Assembly: GCA_964508765.1 (NCBI GenBank)
Contig: CAZDVD010000005.1
Location: 32,357-96,356 of the forward strand
Source: an uncultured Lentisphaeria bacterium
GTDB lineage: Bacteria > Fidelibacterota > UBA8477 > JABMPR01
Direction: 5' to 3'
Length of the DNA stretch: 64,000 bases
In this document: piece after piece, positions 22,032-36,827 of the stretch
Numbering within the stretch: the stretch's first letter is position 1
Layout: every line of letters begins with the position of its first letter
Position numbers and translations under genes: made by a program
The notes under the pieces: model-generated
Databases searched by the model: none
The model's input: the letters and a program-made list of their open reading frames with translations, nothing else
Told to the model about the DNA's origin: nothing

Positions 22032-23696
22032 ATGTGTGGAATTGTATGTGTCTTTGATCTGCAGGAGGACGCCAAAAAACTGCGCCCCAAAGTTTTGAAA
22101 ATGTCGAAAAAACTGCGACATCGTGGCCCGGACTGGTCTGGTATTTATTGCGGTGATCATGCTGTCATGAGCCATGAGCGGTTAGCCATTGTTGATCCGA
22201 TTTCAGGTGGACAACCCCTCTACAACGAAGAGAAAACAATGGTTCTGGCAGTGAATGGTGAAATATATAATCATGAGGATTTGAGAGAACAGTGTCAGGA
22301 TTATCAATTTCAAACCCATTCTGATTGTGAAGTCATATTAGCCCTTTACGAGAAAAAGGGTGCTGATTTTTTGGATGAGCTCAACGGCATCTTTGCCTTT
22401 GCCCTATATGACACGGTGAACAACACTTTTTTAGTTGCCCGCGACCATATGGGTATCATCCCCCTTTATATGGGCTGGGATGAATCAGGTCGTTTTTATG
22501 TCGCTTCTGAACTGAAATCTCTGGAAGGGGTTTGTAACAAAATCGAAGTATTTCCTCCTGGGCATTATTTCTCAAGTGAAGATGGCGAATTGAAGAAATG
22601 GTATCAGCGGGATTGGTCAGACTACAAGACCGTTCAGGAAGCAAAAAGTAGTATTACAAAGATCAGAGATGCTTTGGAGGCCGCTGTTCATAGACAGCTC
22701 ATGTCTGATGTGCCCTATGGCGTGCTGCTCTCAGGGGGTCTTGATTCGTCCATCATATCTGCCGTAGCCAAAAAATATGCTGCTTTTAGAGTTGAAGAAC
22801 ATGACAAAGAAAAAGCCTGGTGGCCCCGATTACACTCCTTTGCAGTAGGCCTGGAAGGGTCTCCTGATCTGGCTGCAGCCCGCAAAGTCGCTGAGCATAT
22901 TAATACAGTTCACCACGAGATATTTTTCACCATACAGGAAGGCCTGGATGCCCTCCATGATGTTATCTATCATCTGGAAACCTATGATGTCACCACGGTG
23001 CGAGCCTCAACTCCCATGTATCTATTGGCCCGGGCTATCAAGGCCATGGGTATCAAGATGGTACTTTCTGGAGAAGGAGCTGATGAAATATTTGGGGGTT
23101 ATCTCTATTTTCATAAAGCTCCTACAGCAGAAGCCTTCCACGAGGAAACCGTTCGCAAGCTAAACAAGTTGCATCTCTACGACTGTCTCAGGGCAAATAA
23201 ATCCTTGGCCGCCTGGGGGATTGAAGGTCGGGTTCCATTCCTGGATAAGGAGTTCATGGATGTTGCCATGCGTTTAAACCCACAGGACAAAATGATCAAT
23301 GGGGAGCGTATGGAGAAATGGATATTGAGGAAGGCTTTTGAAGACTATTTGCCTGAAAGCGTAGCTTGGAGACAAAAAGAGCAATTCTCAGACGGTGTTG
23401 GATATAGCTGGATTGACAGCTTGAAGGAGTTGGTTGATCAGGAAGTAAGTGATCAGCAAATGGTCAAAGCCAAATTCAAATTTCCCATCAATACACCCCA
23501 GAGCAAGGAAGAGTATTACTACCGCAGCATTTTTGCTGAACATTTTCCATCTGATTCGGCTGCGAAGTGTGTACCATCAGTTCCTTCAGTGGCCTGTAGT
23601 ACACCAGAAGCCCTGGCCTGGGATGCCTCATTTCAGAACCTGAATGATCCTTCTGGTAGGGCGGTTAAGACGGTTCACGAAGAGGCTTACGAATAG
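22032..23696 (+). CDS. asnB: asparagine synthetase B (glutamine-hydrolysing)
   Basis: MCGI Ntn start, RHRGPDWSG, VNGEIYNH, LLSGGLDSS, WRQKEQFSDGVG. Confidence 0.98.
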   Translation: MCGIVCVFDLQEDAKKLRPKVLKMSKKLRHRGPDWSGIYCGDHAVMSHERLAIVDPISGGQPLYNEEKTMVLAVNGEIYNHEDLREQCQDYQFQTHSDCEVILALYEKKGADFLDELNGIFAFALYDTVNNTFLVARDHMGIIPLYMGWDESGRFYVASELKSLEGVCNKIEVFPPGHYFSSEDGELKKWYQRDWSDYKTVQEAKSSITKIRDALEAAVHRQLMSDVPYGVLLSGGLDSSIISAVAKKYAAFRVEEHDKEKAWWPRLHSFAVGLEGSPDLAAARKVAEHINTVHHEIFFTIQEGLDALHDVIYHLETYDVTTVRASTPMYLLARAIKAMGIKMVLSGEGADEIFGGYLYFHKAPTAEAFHEETVRKLNKLHLYDCLRANKSLAAWGIEGRVPFLDKEFMDVAMRLNPQDKMINGERMEKWILRKAFEDYLPESVAWRQKEQFSDGVGYSWIDSLKELVDQEVSDQQMVKAKFKFPINTPQSKEEYYYRSIFAEHFPSDSAAKCVPSVPSVACSTPEALAWDASFQNLNDPSGRAVKTVHEEAYE

Positions 23697-23870
23697 AGTT
23701 AAATGAGTTAATGAGTTAATGTGATTCTCGTATCTAGCCGAGAGTCGTCCGCGTTATCCTGAGCGGAGTCGAAGGATATATATTTAGAGTTATTTAGGTG
23801 TGAGTTTATCGAGCTTAATAGGTTCGAGGTGAGGTGTCACCATAAGGGTGAATGAAGTGAGTGCCTCGAA
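23696..23870. repeat. intergenic repeat patch: GAGTTAA(A)T x3, REP-like GTTATCCTGAGCGGAGTCGAAGGA, and TTCGAGG...CCTCGAA inverted pair
   Basis: Tandem at 23696-23720; uninterrupted form of the thr-locus REP at about 23753-23776; inverted arms at 23823-23870. Confidence 0.55.
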
Positions 23871-23995
23871 TTGTGATTTGGGCTGATCGGGTTCGTAGGT
23901 TGTCTGGATACTTCATCTTGAGCAGCGTCGCAGGAGTGGTCAAAATCAATCAATTTTAGATTTTCAAATATACTTGTTCTGGCTTACCTAGCAGG

Positions 23996-25786
23996 ATGTG
24001 GTGGGATGAAGACTTTAGCCTGGATGATGATAATGCCAAAACCTACTCCTTCAGGGAGATGGTCAGGGGTGTTTATCCGTTTCTAAAACCCTATAACCGG
24101 ACCTTTGTTTTTGCGCTGATCTGGGCTTTTGTTGGTGTTATCCTGGTCCTGTTTCAACCGATTATCCTCAAACATATCATTGATTCGGATATCCCAAGTA
24201 AGAATTTTACTGCACTCGCCTGGTCAGCAGGATTGTATTTCCTCACCATGATCTTTTCAGCCATTGTTGGATTCTATAGTAACTGGATGGCACAAAAGGC
24301 TGGTATCTTTGCAGTAAATGATCTCAAGGTTTCCCTTTTCTCCCACGCCCTGAAACTGGGTTTGCCCTTCGCAGAATCCACTTCCACAGGACAATTGGTC
24401 AGCCGAATCGAATCGGATCCACAGCGCATTATTGCAGTGACCTCAACCATGGCACAGCGTTTACTCATGTCCTTTGGAATGATCATTGGTGCCTTTGTGA
24501 TTCTTGCTTCAGTTGATATGCGTTTCATGCTTATCACGGGTGCAATTTTCCCTCTGGTAATTTTTATCGCGTGGTTTTCATTTCGATATTTCAGACCCTT
24601 CTTTCGTAAGGATCGGGCAAATTTCTCCAAAATGTTGGGCATCCTCAGCGAGTTTGTCAGATCTGCGAGTATCCTGCAGGTATTTGATAGAACAGATTGG
24701 GCAATCGGCCGAGTCCGTAAATCTACCGAAGACTTCAATCGATTTAGCATTAAGATGAATTTTATCAATTATGGTATTTTCCAGGGGCTTGGGTTCATGG
24801 AAGTGGGTGCCACTGTGATTGTGCTTATGCTAGGCGTCAAGTGGGTGAATGACGGTAGCCTGACTATCGGTGCTCTCGTTCTGTTTGCCCAATACATTGC
24901 CCAGATTTACTGGCCCATTTTTATGTTCACGGAGCAAATATCTCAGCTCCAATCAGCAGGTGGGGCCGCAGATCGCATATTTTCCACCCTGGAAGACAAA
25001 CCATATATCGAGACTCAACCTGATCCTGTTGAATTGCCTCGGTATGTTAGGAGTATTCGTTTTGAGAATGTCAGTTTCGGCTACTCCGATGATGACATGA
25101 TCATCAAGAGTATGAGCTTTGAAATAATGGGTGGTGACCAGGTCGCCTTTGTTGGGCCAACTGGTGGTGGGAAATCCACGATCATCAATTTGATCTGCCG
25201 CTTCAGGGATCCTCAATCAGGCCGCATTATGCTCAATGGGATTGATATTCGTGAATTCGATGTGGCAGCTTATCGTCGCCGATTTGGTCTGGTACTCCAG
25301 GACCTTTTCCTTTTTCCTGCCCCCATTGAAGAAAATTTAAGAGCTTTTCGCGAAGAAGTTTCCCAGGCTGATCTCGAGGAAGCTGCAAATCTCACGGATA
25401 TTCATGCCAGTATTCTCTCCCGATCTGATGGCTACCAAACCGTCCTTAAAGAAAGTGGCGAGGGATTCTCCTACGGACAAAGACAGCTGATTGCCTTTGC
25501 TCGAGCCCTGGCTGTCAAGCCTCAGGTGCTGGTGCTGGATGAGGCAACATCCTCTGTTGATCCAGGGACAGAGCTGCGCATTCAAGCCACCATGAAAAAA
25601 CTCACCGAAGGTCGAACCTCTTGTATTGTAGCACATCGGCTGAGTACAATTCGCAGAGCTACGTCAATCATTTTTGTAAGAGATGGAGAGATTGTTGAGT
25701 CTGGGAATCATGATGAATTGATGTTATTGCGGGGCGCATATTTCGACCTGTTATCTCATGTGGACCCTGAGAAGGAAATGCTATAA
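23996..25786 (+). CDS. ABC exporter subunit (TMD+NBD)
   Basis: Six-TM region, Walker A GPTGGGKS, non-canonical signature FSYGQ, Walker B VLDE, AHRLST. Confidence 0.93.
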   Translation: MWWDEDFSLDDDNAKTYSFREMVRGVYPFLKPYNRTFVFALIWAFVGVILVLFQPIILKHIIDSDIPSKNFTALAWSAGLYFLTMIFSAIVGFYSNWMAQKAGIFAVNDLKVSLFSHALKLGLPFAESTSTGQLVSRIESDPQRIIAVTSTMAQRLLMSFGMIIGAFVILASVDMRFMLITGAIFPLVIFIAWFSFRYFRPFFRKDRANFSKMLGILSEFVRSASILQVFDRTDWAIGRVRKSTEDFNRFSIKMNFINYGIFQGLGFMEVGATVIVLMLGVKWVNDGSLTIGALVLFAQYIAQIYWPIFMFTEQISQLQSAGGAADRIFSTLEDKPYIETQPDPVELPRYVRSIRFENVSFGYSDDDMIIKSMSFEIMGGDQVAFVGPTGGGKSTIINLICRFRDPQSGRIMLNGIDIREFDVAAYRRRFGLVLQDLFLFPAPIEENLRAFREEVSQADLEEAANLTDIHASILSRSDGYQTVLKESGEGFSYGQRQLIAFARALAVKPQVLVLDEATSSVDPGTELRIQATMKKLTEGRTSCIVAHRLSTIRRATSIIFVRDGEIVESGNHDELMLLRGAYFDLLSHVDPEKEML

Positions 25787-27501
25787 TGGCTCTCCTTGGT
25801 GCCACAAAACACGTCCTGGGGTGGTTCGCCCCCTATTGGAGGCAACGCTGGAAGGGTATTGGTTGGGTCATGCTCATTACCGTGGTGAGTATTGCTCTTA
25901 GTACCACTTATCCCATTATATTCAAATATGTCATCGACTCTTTATCAGCAGGAAGAGAGACAACAGATGTGCAGTTCTATGTCTGGATCATCTTGTTGGT
26001 AGGACTTGCGCGCACTATTACACGCTGGATTTTACCTTCCTCCCGCTACATCATGAATTTGCTCCTCGGTTTGGATATCAAGCTCTTCCATTTCGAAAAT
26101 CTGCTACGGAAAGATCCGGCATTTTTCAATAACTTTCGATCAGGGGACCTTATCACCCGTTTCTCTGATGATATTGATGGGGATGTAAAATTAGCCTGGT
26201 TTGGTAACTCCGGCATCATGCGACCCATTGAAGCTGGTTTTACCCTCTTGTTTTCCATTGGGGTCATGATGACCCTCCATTGGAAATTAACGCTTCTGGC
26301 TGTCTCACCATTGCCCCTGATTGTCTGGGCCATGAGCAAGACAGAACATTCTCAGCACAAAGCTTACAAGCGACGCCAGGAAACCATCTCTCAGACCAAC
26401 AACATTTTGGAGAGTGCCTTTTCAGGCATAAGGATTGTGATTGGCTTTGTTATGGAGCAGGCTCAGGAAAACCTTTTCAAAAAGAATATGGAAGAACGCA
26501 AGGATGCTGAAGAGCGCGTTGTTTATATCCGCTCCTTCCTGGAAAGCCTTGGAAGTGTCATTAATCAGGTTGGCCTGGTGGTCATTCTCTTCCTTGGCGG
26601 CTACTATGTCATTCACAGTGAAATCAGCCTGGGCGATTTTTATGCATTCATAGCCTATATGACAGGTATCACTGAACCCATTTGGACCATATCCTGGTTT
26701 TTTGTTTCTCTAAAAATGGCTGAATCTTCCGTAGATCGTTTGGAAGAGATTGAAAAATTTGAGAACAAACCTCGACATGACACGGTGGTGGAACCGCCGA
26801 TCCAGATTCTGGATGTGAGGAATTTACATTATCGGTTCCCCGGGGAGACCGAAGACGTTATCAAGTCACTTAATTTTCAGGCCAGACCAGGTGAAAAGAT
26901 CGGTATTGTGGGTGAGGTGGGTTCAGGTAAAACTGTTTTGCTAAAATTGATCTCAGGTTGGTTTGTCCCCCACAGTGGATCTGTGGCATTGAATGATACT
27001 TGTCTCAGCGAGCTTAGTGATGCTTCCAGGGCTCAGAGTATTGGTTATGTGCCCCAGGATATTGAATTGTTCAGTGGCACCGTGACCGACAATATCAGTA
27101 TGGGGCGGGAGGCTATCAAAAGTATTGAATCCATCACTAAAACCGCAGTCATTGGTCATGAATTGGATATGGATAAGATGTTAGAGCAAGGTGGCATAGG
27201 ACTCAGTGGGGGACAGCGAGCACGAGTCGCTCTGGCACGGGCATTCTATGGGAACACGCCCATTTACATTTTTGATGATGTGACTTCAGCTCTGGATCTT
27301 CATACAGAGAAAGTTTTGTGGCGGAACATCAACGCCAGTTATTCGGAAGCACTTTTTCTGGTAGCCACACATCGTGAAGCAACGGCTGCTGAAATGGATC
27401 GAGTCATCTGGATTAAAAATGGTCAGATTCATTATGAGGGTCAGCACTCAGATTTGTTAAGACTTCATCCCGAGTACCGTTCCCTGTTTGCCCATGATTA
27501 G
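25786..27501 (+). CDS. ABC exporter partner subunit (TMD+NBD, degenerate Walker B)
   Basis: GEVGSGKT, LSGGQ, IFDD (Asp for the catalytic Glu); translationally coupled to the previous gene. Confidence 0.92.
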   Translation: MALLGATKHVLGWFAPYWRQRWKGIGWVMLITVVSIALSTTYPIIFKYVIDSLSAGRETTDVQFYVWIILLVGLARTITRWILPSSRYIMNLLLGLDIKLFHFENLLRKDPAFFNNFRSGDLITRFSDDIDGDVKLAWFGNSGIMRPIEAGFTLLFSIGVMMTLHWKLTLLAVSPLPLIVWAMSKTEHSQHKAYKRRQETISQTNNILESAFSGIRIVIGFVMEQAQENLFKKNMEERKDAEERVVYIRSFLESLGSVINQVGLVVILFLGGYYVIHSEISLGDFYAFIAYMTGITEPIWTISWFFVSLKMAESSVDRLEEIEKFENKPRHDTVVEPPIQILDVRNLHYRFPGETEDVIKSLNFQARPGEKIGIVGEVGSGKTVLLKLISGWFVPHSGSVALNDTCLSELSDASRAQSIGYVPQDIELFSGTVTDNISMGREAIKSIESITKTAVIGHELDMDKMLEQGGIGLSGGQRARVALARAFYGNTPIYIFDDVTSALDLHTEKVLWRNINASYSEALFLVATHREATAAEMDRVIWIKNGQIHYEGQHSDLLRLHPEYRSLFAHD

Positions 27502-27523
27502 GAATATCCCTGATAGATATTAC

Positions 27524-27561
27524 CCGTCTTCGTCCTGACTGAAGTCTGGACTACGCCGCGG
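27524..27561 (-). repeat. GTAG-type REP-like hairpin
   Basis: Minus strand GCGTAG-TCCAGACT-TC-AGTCAGGA-CGAAGAC shares the GCGTAG...CGAAGAC frame with the insert in the 61-bp repeat. Confidence 0.5.
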
Positions 27562-27578
27562 TTCACCTTACGGTGAAT

Positions 27579-27610
27579 AAAAAAAGCCACCCCTATTGAC
27601 GGATGTGGCC
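27579..27610 (-). terminator. intrinsic terminator of glutamine synthetase
   Basis: Minus strand GGCCACATCC-loop-GGGGTGGC-TTTTTTT. Confidence 0.7.
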
Positions 27611-27639
27611 TTGTAAATCCTAATGAAGAGGAGAAGTCT

Positions 27640-28650
27640 TTAGGAACAGACCGTCTCCAGCAAAATGGCACAAACTTCATATGGATCCATATTGGCTGAA
27701 GGACGACGATCCTCCAGATAACCCTTGCCCTCTTTTACGGTTTGAAGAGGAATACGAACGGAAGCACCACGATCACTCACACCATAACGGAATTCATGAA
27801 TGGAACAGGTCTCATGGAGACCTGTGAGTCGTTCTTCATTGTGAGCACCATAAACAGCAATATGCTCTTCATGTTTCTCAGAAAGTTTTTTACAGGCTGT
27901 TTCAACCACATCATAACCACCCGTTTCACGCATGGTTTTGGTGCTAAAGTTGGTGTGAGCTCCGGCGCCGTTCCAGTCACCCTTAACCGGTTTTGGATGA
28001 ATACTGGCATTGACACCATATTCTTCAGCGATACGGTAGAGTAACCAACGAGCCATCCAGAGATGATCGCTGCTCTCCAGTGGACCCAGTGGTCCAATTT
28101 GAAACTCCCACTGACCCGGCATGACTTCAGCATTGACACCCGAAATACCAAGACCAGCGCGGAGACAGGCTTCCAGGTGGTCTTCCACGATATCGCGACC
28201 AAAAACTTCATCTGCACCGACGCCACAATAAAAGGGTCCTTGTGGGGCTGGGTAACCGCCATCAGGCCAGCCCAGAGGGGCGCGACCCTGAAAAAATGTG
28301 TACTCCTGTTCGATTCCAAACCAGGATTCTTCAGCTTCGAATTTCTTGGCAACCTCAACAAGATGATCCCTTTTGTTGGATTCGTGAGACTTGCCATCTG
28401 GATAACAAACGGCATTCATTACCAGAATATTGTCTCCACCCCGAATAGGGTCTGAATAAAAAGATACGGGATGCAAAGAACGATCACTATCGTGTCCCAC
28501 TGCCTGCATGGTACTGGAACCATCAAAGCCCCATTCGGGTATTTGATCCAGCGAGGATATGGGTCCATCAATAATTTTTGTTTTAGAACGCAGTTTGGAT
28601 GTGGGGGTGTGCCCATCAATCCAGATATATTCAGCTTTAATCTTTGCCAT
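27640..28650 (-). CDS. glnII: glutamine synthetase, type II (GlnII / eukaryote-like)
   Basis: 336 aa; AEYIWIDG, LRSKT, WFGIEQEY, PQGPFYCGVG, NAEVMPGQWEFQIGP, GDWNGAGAHTNFST, LTGLHET, YLEDRRPSANMDPY. Confidence 0.95.
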   Translation of the reverse strand: MAKIKAEYIWIDGHTPTSKLRSKTKIIDGPISSLDQIPEWGFDGSSTMQAVGHDSDRSLHPVSFYSDPIRGGDNILVMNAVCYPDGKSHESNKRDHLVEVAKKFEAEESWFGIEQEYTFFQGRAPLGWPDGGYPAPQGPFYCGVGADEVFGRDIVEDHLEACLRAGLGISGVNAEVMPGQWEFQIGPLGPLESSDHLWMARWLLYRIAEEYGVNASIHPKPVKGDWNGAGAHTNFSTKTMRETGGYDVVETACKKLSEKHEEHIAVYGAHNEERLTGLHETCSIHEFRYGVSDRGASVRIPLQTVKEGKGYLEDRRPSANMDPYEVCAILLETVCS

Positions 28651-28813
28651 TGATAAGACTCCTCAAACGCAGGGTTATATTTTTGTGCACTTAATTATCA
28701 TGACATACAATTAACAAGCATCACACATAGATGTCAATAAATAATTAAGTATATTTTGATATTTATTTAAAATATAAAGAAATCAAGCTGAAATAGTCTG
28801 AATAGTTAAGGTG

Positions 28814-29287
28814 CTATTTGTCCTCAGGTATCAATGCCTGCAGATCGATTGCAGTACTCTCTTTGTAAGTTGATAAGACCAGATTGGATTGGGTTCGCTT
28901 GACGCCAGGCCAATTTTGAACCTCATAAAGGAGATCCTCAAGGGCTTGAGAGTTGCGGGTTCTGACTTTCAGGATATGTGAGCCCGCGCCAATAATGGAG
29001 TGGCATTCTAAAATAGATTTTGATGTGGTGGCCTTCTCAATAAACTTGTCATAGTGGTCGGAGTGTTCACTGACAATAAAGACGAATGCAGTAAGATCCA
29101 GACCTGCTTTTTTGTGGTCAAGAACCGTGGAATAGCCTTTAATGTGCCCCTTCTCAGTGAGCTTTTTCATTCGCTCGCCAATGGCTGGGATGGAGAGCTG
29201 CACAACCTTGGCAATTTCACTGGCTGTGGCGCGTCCGTTTTCTTGAAGTAATTCCAATATCTGGATATCGCGATCGTCTATCATCAT
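28814..29287 (-). CDS. Lrp/AsnC family transcriptional regulator
   Basis: IDDRDIQILELLQENGR HTH, ERMKKL...GHIKGY, ECH..G RAM domain. Confidence 0.93.
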   Translation of the reverse strand: MMIDDRDIQILELLQENGRATASEIAKVVQLSIPAIGERMKKLTEKGHIKGYSTVLDHKKAGLDLTAFVFIVSEHSDHYDKFIEKATTSKSILECHSIIGAGSHILKVRTRNSQALEDLLYEVQNWPGVKRTQSNLVLSTYKESTAIDLQALIPEDK

Positions 29288-30528: not shown

Positions 30529-30560
30529 GTGTTAGCTATAATCCATTTTATTGTAAAATG

Positions 30561-30595
30561 AAAAGGAGCCCCTGATTTTTAGGGGCTCCTTTTTT
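30561..30595. terminator. bidirectional intrinsic terminator
   Basis: AAAAGGAGCCCCT-GATTTTT-AGGGGCTCCTTTTTT between convergent genes. Confidence 0.9.
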
Positions 30596-30617: not shown

Positions 30618-31427
30618 TTATTTTATAGCAAACGGCTCGAGGTTTTCGCTTTCGATATCTCTAAAATACCTATAAGTCCCATGCTTTAATTCGTAGGTTG
30701 CATCCTCATCACATACCACCATGGATTTTGGATGCAACTGTAAGGCAGAGGAGGTCCACATATGATTGACACCCTCTTCAATCATTTTGTAAAGCGCTCT
30801 GGATTTTGAGTGTCCGTTAACGAGGAGAACCACTTCTTTAGAATCTGTTACCGTTCCCACACCCACTGTTAGGGCAAGCTTTGGAACAGACTCAATGTCA
30901 TTCCCAAAAAAACGGGAGTTGGCAATGCGGGTATCATAGGTAAGTGTCTTGACGCGGGTTCGGGAGTGCAGAGAAGAACCGGGTTCATTGAAGGCGATGT
31001 GTCCATCTGGTCCGATACCACCTAGAAAAAGACGTATTCCACCCACTGCTTTAATCTTGGCTTCGAAGGCATTACATTCAGCTACCAGGTCCTTGGCGTT
31101 TCCGTCCAGGATATTGATGTTCTCCTCAGGAATGCCAATATGGTTAAAGAGATTCTGGCGCATGAATGAATGGTAACTTTCGGGGTGTCCCTCGCGAATA
31201 TTCACATATTCATCCATGTTAAAGGTGATGACATTTTCAAAGGACACGTGTCCCTCATTAACCAGCCCGACAATTTCTTTGTAGGTACCGACAGGAGAGG
31301 AGCCAGTTGGGAGTCCCAACACATATGGTTTATCTTTGGTGGGAGCAAAATCGTTAATGCTTTTAGCAATATAATGGGCTGTCCATTTACTCAGTCTATC
31401 GTAATCAGTTTGAATAATCAGTCTCAT
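30618..31427 (-). CDS. nagB: glucosamine-6-phosphate deaminase
   Basis: [43 protein letters not shown]. Confidence 0.97.
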
Positions 31428-31440
31428 TCTTTTCTCCAGT

Positions 31441-33414
31441 TTATAATTTGTTTAAGATGCTGAGCGTGTGGTCATAATTACTCTCGAGCTGCACTCTCAT
31501 TTCATCTAGTTGTTTCTTAAATGAATTGGATTCAAAATTTCCGCGAACGGCATCGAAGTCGGCATCACCATCACCATCAATCCCAAAACCAGTTCTCACA
31601 TTGCCCTCGAACTCCTTGGAGGCATCCATTTCTACCATGTTGAGTAACTTGGTGGAAGAGACCTTCCATTTTTCCAGGACCGTTTTGAGATTTTCAGAAG
31701 TGAGGGTTTCAAATCCATAGACCCGTGGAATAGTCTGTATCACCCAGGACCATTCATCCAGAGCATAACTTCCGTGAATCTTTTGAAGTTCATCCTGAAG
31801 GGCTTTGATGTCGGCGACTTTGCCAGATTTAATATTATCCACCAAGGTGTTGAGACGGGGTTGTGCACACAATAATCCGGAAACATCAATCCAGTTACTT
31901 CCTCCACGCTCAGCACCTACTCCTGGGGCCGTTAATGCCGGTAAGTCCTTTACCGGATCCGTTGCGAGTTTGGCGACCAGGGCATCACCCAAATATTTTT
32001 CAAGGGCCATACGGTAGTAGCGACTACAGGTTTTCAGGAGCAGACGTTTGATGAGAATTCCCTGATGACTCACATATTCCTGACCCTTTTCAGCTCCGGC
32101 ATAAAGATCCAGCAGGATGGACTGGCCCTTGATCATCTTTTGACCAGTATATGGTGATAGAACCTCAAAATTGAGTTGATCCAGCTTGTCGGCATTTTTG
32201 CGTCCATCACGGGTTGGCCATTTTAAGCCATCGCGCATGGTCCCAACGGTAAAAAAGTTCATACCTGGTACCAGGGTGGATTGACCCCTATCTTCATTTA
32301 CATAAGAGAATGGAAAATCAGAGCTGTCAAAATTGGCGTAATGTTTTCCCATGATGGCTGAGAAGGCACCTACTCTGGAGGGCCAGAGGAGATAGGAGGA
32401 TGAACCCGTCTTGCTACCACGTTCCAGGATGCCCTGATGTAATGGCCCCAGTTTATACATGTGGTTGGACTGGTTGGTACCGCTACCCGCATTAAAAAAG
32501 GAGAACATGCCAGCAATCATGAGTGTGGAACGATGGTGAGTTACTGTATAGGGACCACCAAAAATGGAGCAGACCTCACTATGAAATCCTTCAGAATTGC
32601 AAAACATAACGGAATTTTCAGCCGAGAATTGCTTGCCGATTTTGGTGGCTTCACCAATCAATGTTGAGGCAAGTAATGCTCCATCTGATACATAGGCACC
32701 CTTTTGAATGATGAAGTCTTTGGCAATGACATCATCACCAACAAAGGTAGGGGCATCAAGCGATGAGGCGATGGTTCCCTCCTTCAGGTTTTGAATACCT
32801 CTGAGAACAGCACCTTTACCAATATTCACATTTACGATATTTTGACAGTGAAATAATTTGGCGCCTTCACCAATGATGGCACGATCAGAACGGACGCTTT
32901 CCGCATAGTTATCAGCGATTTGATCCAGTGCTTTAATCAAGGCAGTATCATGACGATACATAGTGGATAGATAGGCAGTCTGAGCACTGGTCATAGCTGT
33001 GATCTTCAGTTCACGACCACCACCCTCGTTGAGGACTTCAATGGCATGGCCATTCCCAAAACTGGTTTCTCCCTGACAGACAATTGAGCCGACATTTTCC
33101 ATCAGCACGTTGTCTTCAATAATCAAATTGGAGAGCCAGCCATTGATGTTTGAGATATGGCAATTGTTCCCGATGAGGACATTGTGGAGATTGGCGTCAA
33201 ATATTCCGGCGTAGCGTCGAATACCATCCATGGGTACAAATTCACCGTCAAGGTTTCCAATACGCACCTCACCTCGGAAAATGGTTCCAGCAATACGTGT
33301 GGGGTCAAATCCTTTGGTCACTTTCACCTTGGCCCAGCTTCTTGACCAACAGCCATTCCCTTTCAGGATTTTGATGGCTTCTGGAGTTAAGGCTAAATAT
33401 TTTTCCATACTCAT
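31441..33414 (-). CDS. DUF4954 family protein (left-handed beta-helix-like)
   Basis: [40 protein letters not shown] motifs recalled from Bacteroidota DUF4954; hexapeptide-like repeats. Confidence 0.8.
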
Positions 33415-33424
33415 AAATGCTTTC

Positions 33425-34192
33425 CTATTTAGTGATCACAACTTTTAGTTCATATTTATCACCGCGGTAAATACCCTCAAGATATTCAACAGGCTTATTG
33501 GTCATGGAGAAGGTCGTTCCATGGAGTGTCAAAACAGGACTTCCCTTGGGAATCTCCAGTAAATCAGCACTCTCCTGGTCTGCCAGTCCAGGTTGAATCA
33601 CGTGATCTGCCCGGGAAAGTCTGATGTGCAGTTCTTTTTCGATATAATTATAGATAGAGGTGTCATCAGCCATGCGTGGTTCCATGAGACCTTGACCTGT
33701 TGCCAGGGGCAGATAGGAGGTCTCGATAGCAAAGGGGGTCTCTTCAACATAACGCACCCTGCGAATTCGCACGAGAGCATCACCGGGTTCTTTTTCCAGG
33801 CCAGAGTAAGCCATCCCAAAAGAATCAAAGGCTTCAATCATCTGAATGTCCAGAACCCTTGAGTGGTTGCGATACCCCAACTTGGCCATCTCTGAGGAAA
33901 AGCCCTCCAATTTGAGCAACATCTGAGTATGGGAGGCAGAATTAACAAAAGTCCCCTCACCCCGCCGGATGATAATGAGACCTTCGCGCATGAGTTCCTG
34001 GCTGGCCTGGCGCACTGTCATTCGACTAATATTATATTCAGTAGAAAGCTCATTCTCACTGGGAATTTGATCGCCGGGTTTGAGTTTACCACTATTGATC
34101 AGCTCTTTTAAGATATCCCTGACCTGGATATAAAGAGGAATATAGCTGCTCTTATCAATGTGCGTATCCCGGAGGAGTTGTTCAGGATTCAA
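33425..34192 (-). CDS. GntR family regulator, HutC/NagR type (HTH + UTRA)
   Basis: PLYIQV, PSENEL, ISRMTVRQA, GEGTFV; C-terminal YRGDKY. Confidence 0.93.
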   Translation of the reverse strand: MNPEQLLRDTHIDKSSYIPLYIQVRDILKELINSGKLKPGDQIPSENELSTEYNISRMTVRQASQELMREGLIIIRRGEGTFVNSASHTQMLLKLEGFSSEMAKLGYRNHSRVLDIQMIEAFDSFGMAYSGLEKEPGDALVRIRRVRYVEETPFAIETSYLPLATGQGLMEPRMADDTSIYNYIEKELHIRLSRADHVIQPGLADQESADLLEIPKGSPVLTLHGTTFSMTNKPVEYLEGIYRGDKYELKVVITK

Positions 34193-34198
34193 AACAGG

Positions 34199-34438
34199 CT
34201 ATCCTTCTGCGATCACCTTGTCAATGAAGCCGACAGCGTCACCCACCGTTTTTACACCAAGGGCAGCATCTTCATCCATTTCGATATCAAATTCTTCTTC
34301 AAAAGCAGCCACGAGTTCGATGGACTGCATAGAATCAGCTCCGAGATCCTCTACAAAGCGGGAAGATTCCTGAACACGTGAGGCATCAACTTTAAGAAGC
34401 TCAGCTGCTACATTTTTTATTCGGTCTATCGTTGACAT
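34199..34438 (-). CDS. acyl carrier protein
   Basis: Acidic 79 aa; FVEDLGADS phosphopantetheine site, ELVAAFEEEFDIE, TVGDAV. Confidence 0.92.
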   Translation of the reverse strand: MSTIDRIKNVAAELLKVDASRVQESSRFVEDLGADSMQSIELVAAFEEEFDIEMDEDAALGVKTVGDAVGFIDKVIAEG

Positions 34439-34462
34439 ATCATTTCTCCTTGTTTAGGTGTA

Positions 34463-35656
34463 TCAATTTTTAGTCAATTTGAAGGTGTCGCGAGCAATAG
34501 CGAGTTCTTCATTTGTGGGAATGATCAAAACTTTAATTCTTGATGTTGTCCCCTGAATTTCACCAGGAACACCAACGTGAACTTCGTTTCTTTTTTCATC
34601 TACGAGGATTCCCAATTGATCCATTTCGGATAATATCCGATGACGCATGGCGGCTCCATTTTCACCAATTCCACCGGTGAAAACGATGGCATCCACACGG
34701 TTTAGAACCGCCATGTATGCACCGATATATTTTTTGATTCTGTAGGCGAAAATATCCAGGGCAAGTTCTGCGCGATCATCACCCCCATCTGCTTTTATCT
34801 CAAGATCGCGGACATCATTTGAACTGCCTGACACACCCAAGAGACCAGATTGCTTATTGAGTAGTGTATCCAGACTATCGGTGTCGTATCCTTTACGATT
34901 GAGGTAGAAAAGAATACCCGGGTCAATATCCCCACTCCGGGTGCCCATGACCAGACCCTCCAGGGGGGTTAAACCCATACTGGTATCCACAGAATGACCA
35001 TCTCGAATGGCTGCCACTGAGGATCCATTGCCTAGATGGCACGTGATCAAGTTGACGGAATATTTATGCATTCCCATCATATGAGCGGCTTGTCTGGCCA
35101 CAAACTGGTGAGACATCCCATGAAAACCATAACGCCTGATGTGTAGCTCCGTATAGAGTTTTTCAGGCAGGGCATAGCGGTAGGCTACTTCTGGAATGGA
35201 ATGATGAAAAGCTGTGTCAAAACAGGCGACCTGGGGAATGTCTCCAAAAATGAGTCGAGCTTGTTGTATGCCTGTCAGATTGGGTGGATTGTGGAGGGGA
35301 GCCAATTCAAAAAAGGCTTCGATACCTGCTTCCAGTTCATCATCTATTGGCATCGATCCGCCAAAACTTTCGCCACCATGGACCACACGGTGACCACAGG
35401 CATTGACTTCAGACAGTGACTTAATAGCACCACTTTCTGGATTGAGTAACATTTTCTTGATCACAGCAAATCCAGTAGGATAGTCTGCAATAGATTGGTT
35501 GATTTCGATCTTGCCGTGAGGTGTTTTCAAGGAAGCAAAAGCATCTTCAGAACCCACACGTTCGATCAAACCTTCAGCCAGCACCTTTTCTTCAGGCATA
35601 TGAAAAAGTTTAAACTTTATCGAGGAGCTACCACAATTAAAAACCAGGATTTTCAT
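34463..35656 (-). CDS. ackA: acetate kinase
   Basis: NCGSSSIKF, GHRVVHGG, LAPLHNP, RRYGFHG, DTSMGLTPLEGL, IPTNEELAIA. Confidence 0.97.
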   Translation of the reverse strand: MKILVFNCGSSSIKFKLFHMPEEKVLAEGLIERVGSEDAFASLKTPHGKIEINQSIADYPTGFAVIKKMLLNPESGAIKSLSEVNACGHRVVHGGESFGGSMPIDDELEAGIEAFFELAPLHNPPNLTGIQQARLIFGDIPQVACFDTAFHHSIPEVAYRYALPEKLYTELHIRRYGFHGMSHQFVARQAAHMMGMHKYSVNLITCHLGNGSSVAAIRDGHSVDTSMGLTPLEGLVMGTRSGDIDPGILFYLNRKGYDTDSLDTLLNKQSGLLGVSGSSNDVRDLEIKADGGDDRAELALDIFAYRIKKYIGAYMAVLNRVDAIVFTGGIGENGAAMRHRILSEMDQLGILVDEKRNEVHVGVPGEIQGTTSRIKVLIIPTNEELAIARDTFKLTKN

Positions 35657-35698
35657 TGTTTAACTTTCATTTTTTGTAGAATGAATAGGATTTAATCC

Positions 35699-35768
35699 TC
35701 TCGCAAAGCGCGCAGAGCCGCAGTGTATTTTGGGGCTTTCATTCAGCGTCTTGGCGTACTCTGCGAGA
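35699..35768. repeat. periodic imperfect inverted repeat pair (CGCA(A/G)AG units), no enclosed gene
   Basis: Arms 35699-35723 and 35744-35768 match at 18/25 positions as reverse complements. Confidence 0.65.
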
Positions 35769-35781
35769 AACAATAAGTGCA

Positions 35782-36768
35782 TTATCCCCTGGCCTGGACT
35801 GAAGTGATGGCAGAGACTGCGATGAGGTCGTCTACACTGGCGCCGCGACTCATGTCATTGACTGGTTTGGCAAAGCCTTGAAGAATGGGGCCGATGGCTT
35901 TGGCGTTTGCCATATATTGCACCAGCTTATAACCAATATTCCCAGCATCAAGATCGGGAAATACTAACACATTGGCCTGGCCTGCCACGGTACTTTCTTT
36001 GACCTTTTTAGCAGCTACACTCTGGACGATGGCCGCATCAAGCTGAAGCTCGCCATCCATATCATATTCAGGATTGATCTTTCGGGCAATTGATAAGGCC
36101 TCAATCACCTTATCTGCATCCTCATGTCCTGCAGATCCTTTCGTGGAAAAGGACAGGAAGGCAATTTTGGGATCAATACCAAGTAGAGCCTTAGCATTGG
36201 TTCCAGAAGCAATGGCGATCTCGGCCAATTGTTGAGCCGTGGGCTGGATGTTTACTGCTGAATCTGCAAAGAGGAAAATTTTGTCCTGTTCGCCCTGAAA
36301 CTCAGGAATAATCATAATAAAGAAACTACTTGGTGTGGAGAGACCCTCTTGAAATCCTACGGTAAGTGTGGCGGTCTGGATCACAATGCTGGTGGCGGTG
36401 GCTACACCAGCTACCATACCGTCGGCTTCGCCCTGACTCACCATCATGCCGCCAAAGGAGAGGGGTTTGCGAACCAGCTTTTTAGCGATGGCTTCCCGAA
36501 GTTCCCGCTTGTCTGCATACGCTTGAGAATAGATATCAAGACGTGAATCTGTTTTGCTATCAATGATTTCGATTTCGTTTAAAGCCAGATCGAGTTTCGT
36601 AGCCAGGGCGTGAATTTCATCCGGATTGCCAATCAGAATTGGTTGGGCAATACCCAGACTATGGACTTTCGCAGCAGCTTCAAGTATCCGGGGATCCGTT
36701 GCCTCGGGGTATACAATTCGAGCAGGATTATCCTGTGCTTTTGCGATGAAGCTATCAACAACATTCAT
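35782..36768 (-). CDS. pta: phosphate acetyltransferase (short form)
   Basis: IVYPEATDPRIL, FLSFSTKGS, DGELQLDAA, FPDLDAGNIGYK, GPILQG, NDMSRG. Confidence 0.96.
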   Translation of the reverse strand: MNVVDSFIAKAQDNPARIVYPEATDPRILEAAAKVHSLGIAQPILIGNPDEIHALATKLDLALNEIEIIDSKTDSRLDIYSQAYADKRELREAIAKKLVRKPLSFGGMMVSQGEADGMVAGVATATSIVIQTATLTVGFQEGLSTPSSFFIMIIPEFQGEQDKIFLFADSAVNIQPTAQQLAEIAIASGTNAKALLGIDPKIAFLSFSTKGSAGHEDADKVIEALSIARKINPEYDMDGELQLDAAIVQSVAAKKVKESTVAGQANVLVFPDLDAGNIGYKLVQYMANAKAIGPILQGFAKPVNDMSRGASVDDLIAVSAITSVQARG

Positions 36769-36798
36769 AGTTCAACCTCAATTTTCAATTATGGAAAC

Positions 36799-36827
36799 AG
36801 GATAACATGTCTAGACAGGTAGATCAA
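36799..36827 (-). promoter_or_regulatory. pta-nagB operon promoter with a GntR(HutC)-type operator in the spacer
   Basis: Minus strand TTGATC-17 nt-(TGT)TATCCT; the spacer holds the near-perfect palindrome ACATGTCTAGACAGGT (36805-36820). Confidence 0.75.

Follow-up and report, generated by a model that had tools for sequence, protein, structure and literature searches.

Operon architecture and transcription signals

The 64,000-nucleotide (nt) stretch of contig CAZDVD010000005.1 from an uncultured Lentisphaeria bacterium (assembly GCA_964508765.1, 92% complete; the whole stretch is referred to as the window, and all operon coordinates are positions in it) carries six co-oriented open reading frames on the minus strand (30618-36768), among them a gene of the DUF4954 family whose possible part in amino-sugar phosphate metabolism is the subject of this analysis. 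The gene content and placing given in a preliminary description of the locus agreed with the reading frames and the family models. Listed in the direction of transcription, pta encodes a phosphate acetyltransferase of 328 amino acids (aa) (35782..36768; PF01515, 363 bits; TIGR00651, 337 bits versus a cut-off of 311) and ackA an acetate kinase of 397 aa (34463..35656; PF00871, 474 bits; TIGR00016, 482 versus 293); they are followed by the gene of an acyl carrier protein (ACP) of 79 aa (34199..34438; PP-binding domain, 52.9 bits; TIGR00517, 76 versus 70) and that of a 255-aa regulator (33425..34192), which combines an N-terminal GntR helix-turn-helix (PF00392, 78.6 bits) with a C-terminal UTRA effector domain (PF07702, 110.7 bits) and is thus of the GntR/HutC type. 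The 657-aa DUF4954 protein (31441..33414; PF16314, 588 bits), which also carries DUF6819 (PF20683, 124 bits), precedes nagB, the gene of a glucosamine-6-phosphate deaminase of 269 aa (30618..31427; TIGR00502, 396 versus 237). NagB, Pta and AckA each exceed the cut-off of a curated equivalog or subfamily model.

From pta to nagB the genes are separated by 125, 24, 6, 10 and 13 nt; the short gaps are those described before, and the pta-ackA gap, formerly called repeat-filled, holds a single imperfect inverted repeat. This 125-nt spacer (35657..35781, minus strand) is structured: the arms of the repeat measure 23 nt and are 74% complementary, and the predicted RNA fold has an energy of −31.6 kcal/mol (z = −2.9; 0/200 shuffled sequences were equally stable). 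The hairpin might act in processing or attenuation, separating a housekeeping pta from the remaining genes. Just 3' of nagB, an intrinsic-terminator-like element on the same strand (30555..30592) can be read directly from the sequence, in accordance with the single terminator proposed previously: a 9-bp GC-rich stem GGAGCCCCT, a 7-nt loop, AGGGGCTCC and the T-run TTTTCATTTT. A consensus scan revealed no enrichment of promoter-like sites (11 versus 12.2 in shuffled sequences) or terminator-like sites (3 versus 5.9), and overlooked this plain hairpin and T-run. As already described, the ACP gene stands alone: no fatty-acid, polyketide synthase or nonribosomal peptide synthetase gene was found among the annotated flanking genes of the window. 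Just beyond the operon (22032-29287) lie genes for an asparagine synthase, a short glutamine-synthetase-like protein (336 aa) and an AsnC/Lrp regulator; an AsnC-type gene is also present 3' of nagB in two close relatives (L031 and L032).

Conserved neighbourhood of DUF4954 genes

More than 6000 homologues of DUF4954 were found at E <= 0.001. Some bear the name of the Marinimicrobia (Marinisomatota), the phylum in which the assembly is placed; for others, assigned to Lentisphaerae, Spirochaetota, Verrucomicrobiota, Planctomycetota, Calditrichaeota and KSB1, identity to the protein of the window amounts to 53-59%. Same-strand neighbours were scored at 80 DUF4954 loci taken from species genomes that represent at least 12 phyla. 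The linkage proposed in the preliminary description, of DUF4954 to nagB, ACP, pta and ackA, proved to be strongly conserved across these phyla: a nagB gene was present at 55/80 loci (within 300 nt in 54), an ACP gene of the operon's type (module-type) at 47 and at least one acetyl-thioester enzyme at 52, ACP and such an enzyme occurring together at 45/80. The thioester enzyme was an ADP-forming acetyl-CoA-synthetase-type protein (ACD; identified in Mariniphaga) at 38/80 loci, the pair of pta and ackA at 10/80 (in Marinimicrobia, KSB1, Fibrobacterota and Planctomycetota) and a LeuA-like enzyme at 4/80. Outside the phylum of the window the usual gene order is ACP-ACD-nagB-DUF4954; at three further KSB1 loci nagB is convergent. 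A HutC-type (GntR/UTRA) regulator holds its operon position at 6/80 loci, which belong to Marinimicrobia and Fibrobacterota; in Prolixibacteraceae and their close relatives, a NagC-like ROK regulator is encoded at the head of the cluster. In one Pirellulales metagenome-assembled genome (L097), two DUF4954 paralogues flank pta-ackA (order DUF4954-pta-ackA-DUF4954-ACP-nagB).

The exchange of Pta-AckA for ACD is a non-orthologous substitution, both interconverting an acetyl thioester with acetate and ATP. Three unrelated enzyme types thus occupy one slot and all of them handle an acetyl thioester; because Pta-AckA is replaced by ACD or by a LeuA-like enzyme in other phyla, the module appears tied to an acetyl thioester.

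The LeuA-like protein is HMGL-like, with homocitrate, isopropylmalate and citramalate synthases as best curated and solved relatives; its family comprises only consumers of acetyl thioesters. Around it, 80 metagenome loci were compared: the adjacent genes included the module ACP at 37 loci, nagB at 11 and DUF4954 at 8. At 12 of the 49 best-matching loci a protein of about 427 aa is encoded just upstream of the ACP, the only solved relative of which is the beta-helix half of ST0452 (E 3e-13); this set of ST0452-like protein, module-type ACP and LeuA-like synthase (L124-L142, L146, L147, L164) is often followed by an unannotated protein of about 510-555 aa. Taken together, the LeuA-like, DUF4954 and ST0452-like loci suggest a general pattern that would consist of a beta-helix transferase, the module ACP and one acetyl-thioester enzyme, to which NagB is often added. 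Where a LeuA-like enzyme is accompanied by DUF4954 or the ST0452-like protein, the locus encodes no candidate source of acetyl-ACP apart from this putative beta-helix enzyme. Neither of two genomes with the arrangement LeuA-like-ACP-nagB-DUF4954 has a module-type ACD (best match 34-42% identity), and AckA was not found in one of them.

No description of the module was found in a literature search of article texts; DUF4954 was mentioned only incidentally, and nothing was found on DUF6819, PF16314 or PF20683. The family occurs in 11/121 Bacteroidota genomes, in 5 in its canonical and in 6 in a divergent form of about 750 aa (741-764 aa, 187-213 bits; G046, G051, G083, G087, G103 and G107). To this divergent subfamily may belong the 2175-bp DUF4954 gene that is reported to lie beside lgt in Treponema pallidum (PMC6953169).

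The DUF4954 protein, its carrier and the genomic background

The AlphaFold2 model of the DUF4954 protein (mean predicted local distance difference test, pLDDT, 79.7; predicted TM score 0.84) contains short strands in residues 30-280. Its best, weak fold matches were LpxD-ACP complexes (4ihg and 4ihf at the top, E 0.04), GlmU, AntD and gamma-carbonic anhydrases; a profile search of the PDB sequences returned only the beta-helices of eIF2B-gamma and GlmU, likewise weakly (E 0.01-0.07). The domain model LbH_EIF2B reached E 6e-4 on the protein, which is below that model's cut-off, and hexapeptide families are precomputed on some of the homologues. In the feature space of the Atlas, the nearest clusters were of the UDP-GlcNAc pyrophosphorylase family (GlmU-like) at 0.86, a value under the 0.9 level and thus a lead only. 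Dozens of polar residues are invariant in DUF4954, as is typical of an enzyme. Left-handed beta-helix acyltransferases are trimers that use an acyl thioester as donor and carry a catalytic histidine between the subunits; in DUF4954, the invariant histidines H278, H293, H294, H318, H326 and H358 fall in a stretch that was modelled below pLDDT 50.

A structure prediction together with ACP, suggested in the preliminary description as a check, supports direct contact: the complex model of the DUF4954 protein with the operon ACP scored 0.69 (best of three controls, 0.01), a confidence that is no measurement and that may partly reflect likeness to the solved LpxD-ACP complexes; the mark it passes is reached by 58/80 solved complexes and 2/110 mismatched pairs. 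The runs agreed in at least 94% of contacts, with a partner pLDDT of at least 87. ACP residues 37-48 and 55-61 were placed against DUF4954 residues 371-385, 443-469 and 589-604; ACP helix II, by which acyl-ACP-dependent transferases of the LpxD kind are docked, meets residues 456-466 in the model, and an alignment of 55 sequences shows no variation at K456, R457, L459 and Y467. The model hence supports a direct docking of ACP on an invariant basic helix of the C-terminal helical domain.

This predicted contact, in itself, would also suit an ACP-dependent acyltransferase acting on another substrate, i.e. glucosamine 1-phosphate (GlcN-1-P), a UDP-sugar or some other amine or hydroxyl, with NagB linked only by common regulation or a common precursor pool. 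Such a role is consistent with the GlmU-like Atlas lead and with the existence of the divergent subfamily, including the T. pallidum gene; moreover, the substrate of DUF4954 is deduced from its neighbours only, and 25/80 loci have no same-strand nagB within 2.5 kb, 11 of which, several on short contigs, also have no acetyl-thioester enzyme nearby. The neighbours, however, speak for glucosamine 6-phosphate (GlcN-6-P): nagB is the commonest of them, it is present above cut-off in all 25 DUF4954-positive Marinisomatota genomes versus 4/16 DUF4954-negative ones, and the alternative neighbour GlmS is the other enzyme of GlcN-6-P. A different substrate is regarded as rather unlikely.

The carrier itself is distinct from the housekeeping AcpP. 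Two ACP genes are present in the genome, one of them in a fabD-fabG-acpP-fabF cluster on contig C24; the operon ACP is 45% identical to this AcpP, and, while passing the generic TIGR00517 cut-off, it is not the copy that sits with the fab genes. The preliminary description had considered its proposal endangered if the ACP were the sole housekeeping AcpP; instead, it is a second, divergent carrier. It shares 47-89% identity with the module ACPs from other phyla, in which S-x-Q-S follows the attachment serine, versus S-L-D-T in AcpP.

The pair of pta and ackA presents the opposite case. The operon pta is the genome's only close copy (the next best, on C20, is 35% identical) and the operon ackA the sole full-length one; a dedicated second pta-ackA pair was thus considered and rejected. 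In addition, a 786-aa NagB-like/PIG-L-like protein is encoded on another contig (C23:30665-33025; L121:8666-11026), 43% identical to the protein that heads the module in Prolixibacteraceae and their close relatives; no Pfam family matched it at E 1e-5, and its surroundings of teichoic-acid-like and LicD genes are uninformative. These features would fit an arrangement devoid of a shared pathway, in which a housekeeping pta-ackA merely lies upstream, the NagB-like/PIG-L-like protein deacetylates, and DUF4954 has a regulatory or structural function beside NagB. The structured spacer may indeed part transcription units, and a NagB-like/PIG-L-like gene lies inside or beside the DUF4954 cluster at 11/78 loci. 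Against such an arrangement stand the recurrence of the pta-ackA linkage in four phyla, the fact that in at least 10 further phyla ACD or a LeuA-like enzyme takes the position of Pta-AckA, always accompanied by the ACP, and the enzyme-like set of invariant polar residues in DUF4954; it is therefore considered improbable.

Proposed acetyl transfer, its direction and related systems

DUF4954 probably moves an acetyl group between ACP and GlcN-6-P, in one direction or the other. According to this proposal, the operon would represent an ACP-based acetyl shuttle for an amino-sugar phosphate: DUF4954, as a putative left-handed-beta-helix acyltransferase whose C-terminal helical domain would dock the dedicated holo-ACP, would shift acetyl between the GlcN-6-P amino group and the ACP thiol; Pta and AckA, or the ADP-forming synthetase in other phyla, would link acetyl-ACP to acetate and ATP, and NagB would link GlcN-6-P to fructose-6-phosphate and ammonium. 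In the catabolic sense, N-acetylglucosamine 6-phosphate (GlcNAc-6-P) and ACP would yield GlcN-6-P and acetyl-ACP, the acetyl group being held as a thioester and cashed as ATP, so that the module as a whole would catalyze GlcNAc-6-P + ADP + Pi <-> fructose-6-phosphate + ammonium + acetate + ATP. We infer the substrate, the acetyl transfer and its direction as well as the acceptance of ACP instead of CoA by Pta or the synthetase.

With regard to direction, acetyl-conserving deacetylation is tentatively favored in this NagA-less genome. As stated in the preliminary description, nagA is missing: no NagA was found in the whole assembly (92% complete; best TIGR00221 match, 24 bits versus a cut-off of 226) or in any of the 25 genomes searched from the family to which the window belongs, and the DUF4954 protein itself is no NagA-type amidohydrolase by TIGR00221 and matches no NCBIfam model. 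The genome encodes a GH20 hexosaminidase and a GH18 enzyme, and GlcNAc is therefore a plausible substrate; these two enzymes, together with the single nagB (one match in the genome, the operon copy being the only canonical one) and the HutC-type regulator inside the operon, lean towards catabolism, as do the presumably low-ammonium marine habitat and the LeuA-like variants with no other encoded source of acetyl-ACP. The GH20 gene (786-aa frame; C24:15128-18071) lies about 1.4 kb from a weak acetate-kinase-fold match (32% identical over 162 aa), which may be a sugar kinase. It is only in catabolism that a private carrier has a rationale, because its acetylated fraction can stay far below that of CoA: acetyl-ACP would be kept low enough to pull the uphill transfer from amide to thioester. 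It is possible, if doubtful, that DUF4954 is a thiolytic GlcNAc-6-P deacetylase that passes the acetyl group to this carrier, from which it would be recovered as ATP or for a citrate/citramalate-synthase-like enzyme.

Several observations weigh against this catabolic reading or the transfer as such. The most conserved core of DUF4954 (residues 277-360) was modelled below pLDDT 50, and the PDB fold search with the model gave no match at E 0.001. Since the genome holds no other close copies, the operon pta-ackA has to be regarded as housekeeping rather than dedicated, and the NagB-like/PIG-L-like protein could be an ordinary deacetylase of this genome. No transporter, kinase or glycosidase co-travels with the module, the upstream genes in other phyla being unrelated, and in a cluster of 5 Bacteroidales loci GlmS is encoded directly upstream of DUF4954. 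Beta-helix acyltransferases normally run from thioester to amine. Amide hydrolysis releases approximately 2-10 kJ/mol, thioester and ATP hydrolysis approximately 31-35 kJ/mol each (estimates); by these values, catabolism with ATP gain is feasible only at acetate and ammonium concentrations of about 0.1 mM or lower, and would thus not be feasible in gut or rumen, where the module also occurs, whereas deacetylation with a LeuA-like sink would be comfortably feasible.

The distribution of NagA adds to these counterarguments. In 41 Marinisomatota genomes (25 of the window's own family; the genomes are kin and not independent), DUF4954 was detected in 25 and NagA above cut-off in 4, none of them in that family, within which DUF4954 and nagB occur in the same 22/25 genomes. 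NagA was present in 3/25 DUF4954-positive Marinisomatota, in 3/5 module-bearing genomes of other phyla and in 9/11 DUF4954-positive Bacteroidota versus 16/110 without DUF4954 (part of the first-look candidates being scored in Bacteroidota). The anticorrelation of DUF4954 and nagA predicted in the preliminary description fails outside the family, and in its strict form was rejected; as the association is positive in Bacteroidota, DUF4954 goes with amino-sugar metabolism and not with NagA loss. In sum, the idea that DUF4954 replaces NagA by acetyl transfer is backed by the conservation of the linkage, the existence of a second ACP, the lack of nagA and the modelled contact; it has lost the anticorrelation and the dedicated pta-ackA, and it faces a possible PIG-L-like competitor and marginal energetics. 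The other possibility raised in that description, in which acetate is activated to feed an ACP-dependent acetylation, has about the same likelihood.

In the latter case, AckA-Pta or the ADP-forming synthetase would load ACP with acetate at the expense of ATP, DUF4954 would N-acetylate GlcN-6-P and NagB would work in the aminating direction, so that GlcNAc-6-P would be formed from fructose-6-phosphate, ammonium, acetate and ATP, bypassing GlmS and acetyl-CoA. Each of the families would hereby keep to its usual direction, and the net reaction is estimated to be downhill. The GlmS gene upstream of DUF4954 in Bacteroidales would suit such a synthesis, as would the usual position of the module alone among housekeeping genes, without uptake or kinase genes; at two loci that contain ACD-ACP-LeuA-like and ackA-pta/ACP-LeuA-like genes without DUF4954 (L146, L147), the acetate enzymes are the only evident source of acetyl-ACP. 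A further point in its favor is the state of GlmU, which lacks its acetyltransferase half across the Marinisomatota that have a match: in this genome it consists of the uridylyltransferase half only (252 aa; C29:17899-18618; L118:1489-2247, minus strand), the full-length cut-off was passed in 0/41 genomes, and except in 3 genomes the matches span the N-terminal half only (mostly model positions 2-245).

On the other hand, a private carrier would be pointless with acetyl-CoA at hand, and GlmS is present in this genome (813 bits). DUF4954 is an accessory gene (25/41 Marinisomatota, 11/121 Bacteroidota), and relatives without it share the truncated GlmU. Synthesis would also be undone in a futile cycle by deacetylases of the NagA or PIG-L kind, which are found in the same genomes or even in the same operon, and would leave the LeuA-like variants with two consumers of acetyl-ACP and no encoded supplier; finally, amination by NagB needs high ammonium, which is improbable for marine Marinimicrobia. 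On balance, the synthetic direction is judged slightly less likely than the catabolic one, and neither reaches even odds. The nagB gene BT_4127 of Bacteroides thetaiotaomicron is reported to be repressed during growth on mucin, a condition that induces the catabolic isozymes (PMC13634575); no tie of BT_4127 to DUF4954 was found, and this expression result was given no weight.

That DUF4954 might be the missing GlmU acetyltransferase of the phylum was considered separately and rejected, given that GlmU is truncated with or without DUF4954 and that the family is found in so few Bacteroidota. A 325-aa nucleotidyltransferase with a short beta-helix tail, encoded on C18, is a candidate GlcN-1-P acetyltransferase.

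If acetyl transfer by DUF4954 holds true, textbook amino-sugar metabolism would gain a step whichever the direction, and a family of thousands of members without known function would find its place in a module of four parts that at least a dozen phyla of glycan-degrading bacteria have kept together. Under the catabolic reading, the acetyl group of GlcNAc, a sugar among the most abundant in sea and gut, would be saved by way of a carrier protein, and with a thiolytic deacetylase this would be the first case of an amino sugar being deacetylated with conservation of energy; the synthetic direction would provide a glutamine- and acetyl-CoA-independent route to GlcNAc-6-P. Furthermore, a distinct ACP subfamily would gain a role, and a protein-bound thiol would be shown to serve as a substrate of Pta and of ADP-forming synthetases.

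Among known systems, the module can be compared with the NagA-NagB pathway (Escherichia coli nagBACD), with which it has in common a canonical NagB, regulators of the HutC or NagC type and the same proposed net conversion of GlcNAc-6-P to fructose-6-phosphate; it differs in that NagA is absent here and the acetyl group would stay as a thioester rather than be hydrolyzed off. The arginine deiminase pathway, in which an unfavorable transfer from a C-N bond by ornithine carbamoyltransferase is pulled by an ATP-making carbamate kinase, offers a conceptual parallel only: the proteins are unrelated, and its pull by carbamate breakdown has no counterpart in acetate.

With LpxD and LpxA, DUF4954 would share a beta-helix core acting on an amino sugar and an acyl group carried by ACP, as proposed from sequence and modelling. 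In LpxD, ACP docks on the C-terminal helical domain, and the predicted ACP site of DUF4954 likewise lies on C-terminal helices. In contrast to these enzymes, however, DUF4954 has no significant sequence or fold match, comprises 657 aa with a unique invariant core (277-360) and is paired with a private ACP instead of AcpP; the acyl group would be acetyl, and the direction is possibly reversed. The acetyltransferase domain of GlmU and the archaeal ST0452-type enzymes, finally, are beta-helix N-acetyltransferases of glucosamine phosphate; the weak profile matches of DUF4954 are to GlmU and eIF2B-gamma beta-helices, and an ST0452-like protein stands in for it beside the same ACP at the 12/49 LeuA-like loci mentioned above; they use acetyl-CoA and GlcN-1-P and possess a fused nucleotidyltransferase, whereas DUF4954 lacks such a domain and is paired with ACP and NagB.

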